Shown: positions 1-556, numbered from the stretch's first letter. The stretch: 5,815 bases of DNA from a virus (IMGVR_UViG_2740892211_000008); one strand, 5' to 3'. Translations and numbers: made by a program. The notes: generated from the letters alone by a model not told the origin.

Positions 1-81
1 CAAAATCGGTGGAGCTGCATGACAAAGTCATCGGGCATTATCTGAACATAAAACACTATCAATAAGTTGGAGTCATTACCG
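1..81. repeat. Left copy of a perfect 81-bp inverted repeat at the window terminus
   Basis: Positions 1-81 are the exact reverse complement of 5735-5815 (81/81). Identity breaks at position 82 versus 5734. The repeat may continue beyond the window edge, which cannot be seen. Confidence 0.95.
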
Positions 82-191
82 CATCTGTTATGGATAAAAA
101 TGAAGTCGTACGACAGAGTCTTGTTGATTATATCGACTCGCTTCAACCTGGCACTTTCAATCATGAGAGCTTCAATCATGAGAAAGAGCAT
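1..191 (-). CDS. Partial outward-reading ORF of unknown function; 37 unique codons then 26 codons encoded by the repeat; continues past the left edge
   Basis: The minus-strand frame is open from the stop at 270-272 through position 1. From ATG at 191 it reads MLFLMIEALMIESARLKRVDIINKTLSYDFIFIHNRC, then the repeat-encoded GNDSNLLIVFYVQIMPDDFVMQLHRF. No convincing Shine-Dalgarno before any of the candidate ATGs (191, 179, 164), so start and reality are uncertain. Confidence 0.25.
   Translation of the reverse strand, partial: MLFLMIEALMIESARLKRVDIINKTLSYDFIFIHNRCGNDSNLLIVFYVQIMPDDFVMQLHRF
156..183. repeat. Tandem direct repeat, two copies of TTCAATCATGAGA (156-168 and 171-183)
   Basis: Exact 13-bp unit repeated with a 15-bp period; each copy contains the palindromic hexamer TCATGA. 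Lies between the 106-aa gene and the left inverted repeat. Confidence 0.8.
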
Positions 192-213
192 GTTAAGTCT
201 GTAATTAATTCTC

Positions 214-534
214 TTATTTTGAATCAAAAGAATTAATGCTTTTTGTTGAAAAGTAATTTTCAAGGGGTTCTATTCGAATTCCTTTCTTTTTCATTAACAA
301 GCCAAGCCCCTTATCAATGATGTCCATTAGATCCAGGAAGTATTTTTCATGTAAATCCTGGTTATCAGAGAGCTGCTTCTCTTCGTACAGACCGATAAAG
401 GCACGACGCACGTTACCGGATATAGTATCGATGGTTTCTTTTTCTACGGTACTCAGGTCAAGAGTCGCCAGTTGGGAACGAACTATATTCGCTGCCATTT
501 CCTGGAATTGCATTGGTAAATCTTTAAATTCCAT
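214..534 (-). CDS. Hypothetical 106-aa protein, AT-rich cargo gene at the distal end of the leftward operon
   Basis: ORF of 106 codons with GAGG about 8 nt upstream of the ATG at 534. Visibly lower GC than the neighbouring immunity genes. No signal peptide or transmembrane segment apparent and no family recognised. Confidence 0.6.
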   Translation of the reverse strand: MEFKDLPMQFQEMAANIVRSQLATLDLSTVEKETIDTISGNVRRAFIGLYEEKQLSDNQDLHEKYFLDLMDIIDKGLGLLMKKKGIRIEPLENYFSTKSINSFDSK

Positions 535-556
535 TATTAGCCTCGTTGGTTAGCTA

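Follow-up and report, generated by a model that had tools for sequence, protein, structure and literature searches.

A 106-codon accessory gene inserted between ydfC and dicF of Qin-like prophages, and its likely place in a tail-to-tail cassette

Two gene pairs of Escherichia coli K-12 prophages, ymfI-ymfJ in e14 and sieB-ydaF in Rac, are listed as convergent transcript overlaps in this strain (PMC12288877). In the SOS response, ymfJ is induced late, with log2 fold changes of 4.05 and 4.83 and detection of the protein, while ymfI changes less (1.00 and 1.98) (PMC11002266). In phage P22, the antisense RNA sas and the Esc protein modulate SieB (PMC12197685). In the dicB operon of the K-12 Qin prophage, ydfA, ydfB, and ydfC stand downstream of a DicA-type repressor and are followed, after an empty interval of 340 nt, by the small RNA gene dicF and the division inhibitor gene dicB. 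Here we describe a stretch of 5,815 nucleotides from a virus (IMGVR_UViG_2740892211_000008), the whole of which is referred to as the window, and a 106-codon gene in it, designated gene X (214–534, minus strand). We propose that X is the sense member of a small tail-to-tail cassette in the hypervariable ydfC–dicF interval, the opposite member being a convergent gene designated Y. The anatomy and genomic identity of the X/Y cassette are held with high confidence, and the full proposal, including what the two genes may do, is evenly poised.

The open reading frame of gene X runs from ATG to TAA over 106 codons. Its Shine-Dalgarno motif GAGG (541–544, minus strand) lies 6 nt before the ATG, in sequence that is common to K-12. 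The GC content of X is 0.377, compared with 0.484 for ydfC, 0.473 for ydfB, 0.494 for ydfA, and 0.446 for the repressor gene. A sequence-only reading of the window had described an AT-rich frame of 106 amino acids with its own ribosome-binding site, and both features were confirmed. X matches phrog_6937 over its full length (1.9e-68; residues 1–106 aligned with positions 1–106 of 124), its homologues form 235 clusters at 90% identity, all annotated as hypothetical, and comparison with diverged copies gave a ratio of nonsynonymous to synonymous substitution rates (dN/dS) of ~0.1–0.2, with dS up to 0.29 and dN of 0.03–0.04. Because of this family match, the homologous clusters, and the low dN/dS, gene X is a genuine gene rather than a chance reading frame. 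It is a compositionally foreign accessory gene of an uncharacterised family that is already present in databases. With a pI of 4.97 the protein is acidic, and no segment of it reaches membrane-grade hydrophobicity. An AlphaFold2 model contains three helices (residues 8–23, 32–55, and 59–83) with predicted local distance difference test (pLDDT) values of 78–87 over the N-terminal hairpin (means of 10-residue blocks) and an overall mean of 68. X is thus described below as an N-terminal helical hairpin (residues 1–53) and an allele-specific C-terminal module (residues 54–106).

The genomic position of X was established from relatives that extend further downstream than the window. DNA of the cassette is held by complete E. 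coli genomes at 97–99% identity. In CFSAN018748 (L001) and M7424 (L002), the order is repressor, ydfA, ydfB, ydfC, X (106/109 amino acids), the convergent 91-codon gene Y91, DicF, and dicB, followed by a DUF1482/ydfD-like gene, an exonuclease gene, an excisionase-like gene, and an integrase gene adjoining tRNA-Ser. DicF in these two loci lies downstream of the cassette and scored 76.7 bits (Rfam). Relative to K-12 Qin, the difference is one clean insertion/deletion of 590 bp, which extends from 2 nt before the X ATG to 13 nt before the Y91 ATG. In L001, the inserted segment (8866–9455) has a GC content of 0.38, against 0.48–0.52 in its flanks. In the window, homology to K-12 stops at position 537, and the retained part of the cassette (81–536), absent from K-12 Qin, amounts to 456 of the 590 nt.

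The rest of the cassette was lost to an insertion sequence. The window is a prophage remnant between two IS1 termini that are inverted relative to each other; positions 1–81 and 5735–5815 form a perfect inverted repeat of 81 nt. Positions 1–81 match, at 100% identity, element ends that at least 5000 plasmid records annotate as IS1A/IS1B family transposase, and the terminal sequence is accordingly that of IS1. The first terminus (1–80, plus strand) consists of the 3' end of insB and the terminal inverted repeat and abuts the truncated cassette. IS1 proper stops at position 80, and base 81 is already in the Y91 reading frame. The element therefore sits inside Y91 at codon 41, and dicF, dicB, and all distal sequence are gone. 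The second terminus (5736–5815, minus strand) is inverted relative to the first and cuts the paa adhesin gene. A 5807-nt IMG/VR contig (L014/L099) does not differ from the window over the genes compared, so the window probably represents an entire draft-assembly contig with its ends in repeated IS1.

Neither DicF nor dicB was detected in the window. A search with Rfam RF00039 at the gathering threshold gave no hit, blastn-short with K-12 dicF gave only chance matches of 8–9 nt, and tblastn with K-12 DicB was negative. X itself is not DicB, as it had no match to PF05358 or any other Pfam family above noise and dicB is a separate gene downstream in the relatives. The sequence-only reading had rightly reported the lack of a DicF-like sequence, but had taken X to sit where Qin has dicF and dicB and to be cargo swapped in for them. 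The absence of both genes from the window is what speaks for such a replacement. This absence is, however, secondary, because it is explained by the IS1 truncation; the window ends in IS1 133 nt past the X frame, inside the partner gene. Furthermore, in relatives whose cassette DNA is 97–99% identical, DicF and dicB come directly after it, and DicF and/or dicB follow the cassette in 76 of the 77 X-bearing loci that have more than 1300 nt of downstream sequence. We regard the replacement of a dicF-dicB module in this element as refuted, with next to no probability remaining. X lies between ydfC and the expected place of dicF and is an addition to the dicB operon at this point and not a substitute for its distal genes. 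A comparison of related prophages, as the sequence-only reading had advised, showed a slot that is mostly empty or filled with an X allele; this favors the cargo part of that reading, and nothing was found to have been swapped out. The copy in the window is an orphan X in a decayed, IS1-bounded remnant with a broken partner. The IS1 end and the convergent fragment of the partner had been missed in the sequence-only reading.

This fragment (81–236, plus strand) comprises codons 41–91 and the stop codon of Y91. Its translation, ASVMDKNEV...LILNQKN, is that of residues 41–91 in L001 and L002, and it overlaps the last 23 nt of X convergently. IS1 removed the first 40 codons along with the AGGAGG ribosome-binding site. 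Y91 is, like X, a genuine gene: its two sub-alleles show a dN/dS of 0.28 at a dS of 0.43, and it is homologous to the partner gene of another allele, Y92 (28% identity, E 9e-6). A model of the Y91 protein has four helices with a mean pLDDT of 65. A terminator-like hairpin (262–293, plus strand), AAGGGGTTC-TATTC-GAATTCCTT followed by the T-tract TCTTTTTCA, lies inside the X coding sequence and starts 26 nt after the Y91 stop codon. The scan match was in L002, where RNAfold gave approximately −11 kcal/mol for the hairpin; the best segment of the window, which includes a short upstream hairpin, gave −10.9 kcal/mol.

Convergent overlap is a recurrent property of the X alleles. Five of them, named here by the length of the encoded protein, have a convergent overlapping partner: X106/109 with Y91, X124 with Y73, X133 with Y92, X122 with Y100, and X135 with Y77. 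The overlap is 32 nt in L001, 11 nt for X124/Y73, 41 nt for X133/Y92, and 77 nt for X122/Y100. Of the X106/109 loci, 58 are free of an IS1 cut, and every one of them has an intact Y91-type partner (91 amino acids in 57 loci and called as 96 amino acids in one). Four partner genes were compared for their start context, and three of them have the identical sequence AGGAGGGTGAA-ATG, at the border of the conserved flank. The best promoter candidate for Y, between dicB and dicF (TTAACA-16-GAGAAT), was rejected as it is not conserved in the Y73 allele.

The X family is small and modular. A sensitive family-profile search across 1.84 billion representative proteins recovered no more than 43 clusters, and in none of them could an additional domain be recognised; the named homologues are all from Escherichia except for one Salmonella cluster. 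In the family alignment, residues 1–53 (MEFKDLP...ISGNVRRAFIGLYEEK) are almost invariant, while the sequence past residue 53 differs completely between the length classes of 106/109, 124, 133, 122, 135, and up to 208 amino acids. The N-terminal 53–67 residues are common to PHROGs 1363, 2151, 9419, and 33007 (unknown function), and none of the C-terminal parts matched a family in a Pfam scan. Homology between X106 and X124 extends through codon 91, which leaves the Y-overlapping tail as their only difference. Compared with the 124 positions of the phrog_6937 profile, the tail of X106/109 is shorter and different, with the Y91 module replacing the last ~19 codons. The mosaic breakpoints vary with the allele (X codon 37, 53, 60, or 92), and at least four unrelated Y families occupy the slot. 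Strict co-variation of X with Y was ruled out, as loci with the X106/124 core may have Y91, Y73, or no Y at all. Since X and Y are separable and the breakpoints vary, the ydfC–dicF interval is a mosaic hot spot with two separable modules.

The Shiga toxin (Stx) phage ArgO145 (L012, 3501–3944) encodes, between genes for a DUF2303 protein and a PAPS reductase, a 147-amino-acid protein with the X N-domain, and phage phi191 (BFVD A0A096XEQ2) encodes a homologue of 52 amino acids that consists of the N-domain only. Functional Stx phages thus encode the X N-domain, which also exists outside the dicB operon. In the O45:H2 strain FWSEC0003 (L097, 3293–3637, plus strand), the same prophage backbone carries a gene for a zinc-ribbon-like protein of 114 amino acids with two CxxC pairs, a sixth kind of antisense cargo in the ydfC–dicB slot.

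X-like DNA was found in 932 of 5426 complete E. coli genomes (17%), at a coverage of at least 80% in 726 of them, and ydfABC-type sequence was found in 4126 complete E. coli genomes. Among 80 YdfC-anchored IMG/VR loci, 63 had an empty, K-12-like interval (330–340 nt), approximately 12 had an X allele, and 5 were too short to be resolved. X is therefore accessory cargo of moderate frequency. The view of the sequence-only reading that X is compositionally distinct accessory cargo in a repressor-controlled leftward operon is upheld, as a minority feature, and the gene does not occupy this position in most dicA-type prophages.

The proposed mode of action starts from the orientation of the genes. 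X is on the same strand as ydfABC and downstream of them, and in intact copies it is also on the strand of dicF and dicB, with Y on the opposite strand. The region upstream of the leftward operon containing X has operator-like repeats that recur between the repressor and cro. X would thus be made only once the prophage repressor is inactivated, as ymfJ is, and the lysogen would express Y from the opposite strand. Convergent, overlapping transcription might then render the expression of X and Y largely mutually exclusive, as an excludon like ymfJ/ymfI and ydaF/sieB. We hold this excludon-type regulation tentatively, a little below an even chance. At the protein level, our best guess is that X is a small protein-binding adaptor, in which the constant N-terminal hairpin would dock on a conserved partner and the exchangeable C-terminal module would set target specificity; such an adaptor would fit an early-phase role in host takeover or counter-exclusion. 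This adaptor role, although the one that we prefer, is speculative and taken by itself unlikely.

The closest homologous counterpart of the cassette is found in e14 (L096, 5498–6085), where ymfJ is the first gene downstream of the repressor gene ymfK. As with X and Y, ymfI converges on ymfJ in a repressor-controlled leftward operon, with an overlap of 63 nt; the window has the same convergent geometry, with an overlap of 23 nt and a truncated partner. Residues 2–41 of YmfJ are 75% identical to residues 69–108 of X133 (E 3e-20), and residues 61–94 are 47% identical to residues 65–95 of X122 (E 4e-8). YmfJ is thus built from the same pool of modules as the X C-termini, as a mosaic of X133- and X122-type modules. 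On the opposite strand, YmfI is 56% identical to Y100 (E 2e-37), and Y100 matched the NCBIfam YmfI model NF051477 at 8.1e-32 with 109.6 bits, under its cutoff of 140 bits. Y100 is the sole Y allele with such a match; Y91 gave none to YmfI (NF051477). The systems differ in that YmfJ is without the conserved N-domain that defines X (MEFKDLP...GLYEEK) and in that the e14 pair adjoins xis/int instead of lying upstream of dicF/dicB. A diverged YmfJ module in the C-terminal part of X106 was considered and rejected; MAFFT aligned an LL...EP motif, but the hhalign probability was 0.1%. The sharing of modules links two K-12-type cryptic-prophage regions, e14 and Qin-like, that are not annotated as related.

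Several observations weigh against the cassette proposal. X106, the allele of the window, had no BLASTP match to YmfJ, and YmfJ and YmfI are themselves uncharacterised, so that the analogy carries architecture only and not biochemistry. No convincing sigma-70 promoter for Y was seen in the conserved flank by consensus scan and manual reading, promoter-like matches in the region are no more numerous than in shuffled sequence, and no comparable terminator follows the Y alleles other than Y91. The structure model of X is only moderately confident. X and Y are also separable: the same X core (codons 1–91) occurs with Y91, with Y73, or without Y; seven X124 loci have no Y, with DicF 306–307 nt after the X stop codon; the homologue in Stx phage ArgO145 has no convergent partner; and the slot of the O45:H2 prophage has the antisense 114-amino-acid gene and no X. 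The separate occurrence of X and Y suits a different explanation, in which X is a stand-alone effector of the early operon, for example in host takeover or anti-defence with its C-terminal module in an arms race, and the Y genes are unrelated cargo of the same hot spot. At least seven X124 loci and the Stx phages carry X without Y, a Y-type antisense gene occurs without X in O45:H2, and the allele-specific breakpoints and the four or more unrelated Y families point in the same direction. On the other hand, in each of five X alleles a convergent, overlapping partner is retained and its start context is the same, a Y91-type partner is kept in 58 of 58 X106/109 loci uncut by IS1, and e14 shows the same linkage in ymfJ/ymfI with homologous modules on both sides. 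We consider a stand-alone X possible, though on the unlikely side.

Searches for function or fold were made with both members of the cassette. Scans of X, six Y-type proteins, and distant X relatives against Pfam, NCBIfam, PADLOC, and PHROGs returned PHROGs of unknown function and the YmfI match of Y100, and a scan of ten X and Y proteins against PADLOC-DB v2 returned only noise (E 0.014 or worse). A sequence search of the PDB with the X family profile gave nothing below E 0.3. Foldseek searches with the X model against the PDB and BFVD, and with the Y91 model against the PDB, gave nothing below E 0.02; the best match was the N-domain-only homologue from phage phi191, and both models have a mean pLDDT of 65–68. 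The profile search and structure prediction that the sequence-only reading had called for thus suggested no function, including none of the host-takeover, exclusion, or defence kind that it had put forward. The lack of any function for X from Pfam, NCBIfam, PADLOC, the PDB sequence search, and Foldseek also counts against the proposed role of X. A literature search by RefSeq protein accessions gave no papers, and a filamentation screen of uropathogenic E. coli that covers a Qin-like region is silent on X (PMC6206680).

An oppositely oriented effector and immunity gene is the geometry of pore-forming colicin operons. By analogy, X could be a repressor-controlled toxic effector, its variable C-domain serving in killing or targeting, and Y a constitutive immunity protein, the two forming a toxin–antidote pair. 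The conserved N-terminus and variable C-terminus of X next to a variable small convergent gene would suit this explanation, as would the predicted small four-helix structure of Y91 and the fact that, in intact relatives, X shares its repressed operon with the toxic genes dicF and dicB. It is disfavoured, however, because one and the same X core can be accompanied by Y91, by Y73, or by no partner at all, and because X is intact in the window and in L014 although Y is destroyed. The C-terminal module of X is only ~50 residues of predicted helix, and no toxin, antitoxin, or defence model matched. The best toxin–antitoxin match, Y92 to a RelB-like antitoxin, had an E of 0.011 and 15.9 bits, far below the cutoff of 50 bits. 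A type II toxin–antitoxin system is likewise not indicated, as X and Y are convergent and not co-directional and match no toxin or antitoxin family. An effector/immunity pair is very unlikely in our judgement.

The remainder of the window is a Qin-like prophage backbone. On the minus strand, the gene of a DicA-like helix-turn-helix (HTH) repressor of 135 amino acids (1292–1699; HTH_3 at 8.4e-14; 81/135 residues identical to DicA) is followed by ydfA (935–1090; 51 amino acids; DUF1391, PF07151 at 2.4e-27; 50/51 identical to K-12 YdfA), ydfB (805–933; 42 amino acids; 42/42 identical to K-12 YdfB), and ydfC (557–775; 72 amino acids; 70/72 identical to K-12 YdfC; phrog_1744 at 1.9e-38), the last being directly upstream of X. 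This is the Qin order of a repressor and proteins of 51, 42, and 72 amino acids that the sequence-only reading had given. Repeat analysis found two operator-like repeats with the core ACCTAAGT upstream of ydfA (1171–1221; copies at 1171–1187 and 1206–1221), and a third copy of the core, inverted, lies at 1722–1739 between the repressor and cro-like genes. These repeats are likely binding sites of the DicA-like repressor. A sharp mosaic boundary relative to K-12 Qin (L003) was seen within 935–1699, where YdfA, YdfB, and YdfC are 97–100% identical and the repressor is only 60% identical to DicA; the Cro/DicC-like protein is identical to its K-12 Qin counterpart at 63 of 76 residues. The divergence of the repressor and the Cro/DicC-like protein next to near-identical YdfABC suggests a different immunity specificity acting on the same early-left genes.

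The plus strand of the window carries genes for Cro/DicC-like, YdaT-like, O-like and P-like replication, and DUF1627 proteins, a fimbrial pseudogene, and the truncated paa. The O-like replication gene contains clustered direct repeats (2796–2992), four copies of approximately AAnACACCCAAAAACGG and three of CAAAGACACCCAAA, which look like origin iterons within the initiator gene, in the style of lambda. At the far end, the segment 4784–5735 comprises the fimbrial pseudogene, a hypothetical small gene, and paa (AcfC-family adhesin Paa), which is cut by IS1 so that its 5' part is left. Strains that include O45:H2 and O103:H2 have this segment at 99.9% identity. In the O45:H2 strain FWSEC0003, paa is internal cargo of the same prophage backbone.

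A further explanation puts the function in Y. In this case, Y would be a superinfection-exclusion or abortive-infection protein expressed in the lysogen, and X or the antisense transcription would switch it off at induction. The position and orientation of Y parallel Rac (ydaF-[sieB]-kilS-kilR) and lambda (N-[sieB]-ral), antisense genes of diverse kinds occupy the slot, and the arrangement resembles the action of sas RNA and Esc on SieB in P22 (PMC12197685). The Y proteins are not SieB homologues, however: no Y allele matched SieB in Pfam or PHROGs. They are of 73–100 amino acids and mostly acidic, whereas SieB proteins are of 162–184 amino acids, basic, and hydrophobic, and their maximal hydropathy over 19 residues (KD19) is 0.6–1.4, against 1.7–2.2 for SieB of Rac and lambda, so that they are without the membrane-grade hydrophobic segments of SieB. 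There was also no PADLOC match and no promoter identified, and such a role has only historical bearing on the window, where Y is truncated. We find it quite unlikely that Y is the functional cargo in this sense.

A more general scheme can be drawn from the same analogies. The ydfC–dicF interval might be an undescribed hot spot built as a convergent switch, which would set antisense lysogen cargo against an induction-expressed, modular X. The antisense cargo (Y91/Y92, Y73, Y77, the YmfI-like Y100, or the 114-amino-acid zinc-ribbon protein) could include some new exclusion or defence proteins, and the X transcript or its allele-specific C-terminal module would silence or neutralise Y during lytic development of the prophage, generalising the P22 sieB/sas/Esc logic. 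This switch is a long shot. If it were true, it would mean a new small-protein family and, beside DicF/DicB, a hot spot for exclusion and counter-defence genes in E. coli and Shigella-type genomes, and it would give a testable context to ymfJ and ymfI, which have long been uncharacterised in K-12.

To return to the proposal of a tail-to-tail cassette, the result for the window is a correction: dicF and dicB were not swapped for X, and the window is an IS1-bounded remnant that lost the distal operon and the partner gene. The intact relatives L001 and L002 are better starting points for experiments than the copy in the window. The by-products are the ydfC–dicF hot spot for a convergent two-gene cassette, the relation of this cassette to ymfJ/ymfI, and the parallel with the sieB slot. 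The dicB operon of K-12 Qin is like the window in having ydfA-ydfB-ydfC, at 97–100% protein identity, downstream of a DicA-type repressor, and unlike it in its empty ydfC–dicF interval; the repressor of the window is only 60% identical to DicA, and the distal part of its operon is deleted by IS1. In lambda, sieB is antisense in the early-left operon, as Y is in the present cassette. The order in Rac (L094, 4906–5660), with ydaF on the minus strand, sieB on the plus strand, and the small RNA gene kilS and kilR on the minus strand, parallels ydfC/X on the minus strand, Y on the plus strand, and dicF and dicB on the minus strand. The Rac and Qin-like slots are thus alike in that an antisense gene is followed by a small RNA and a division inhibitor.

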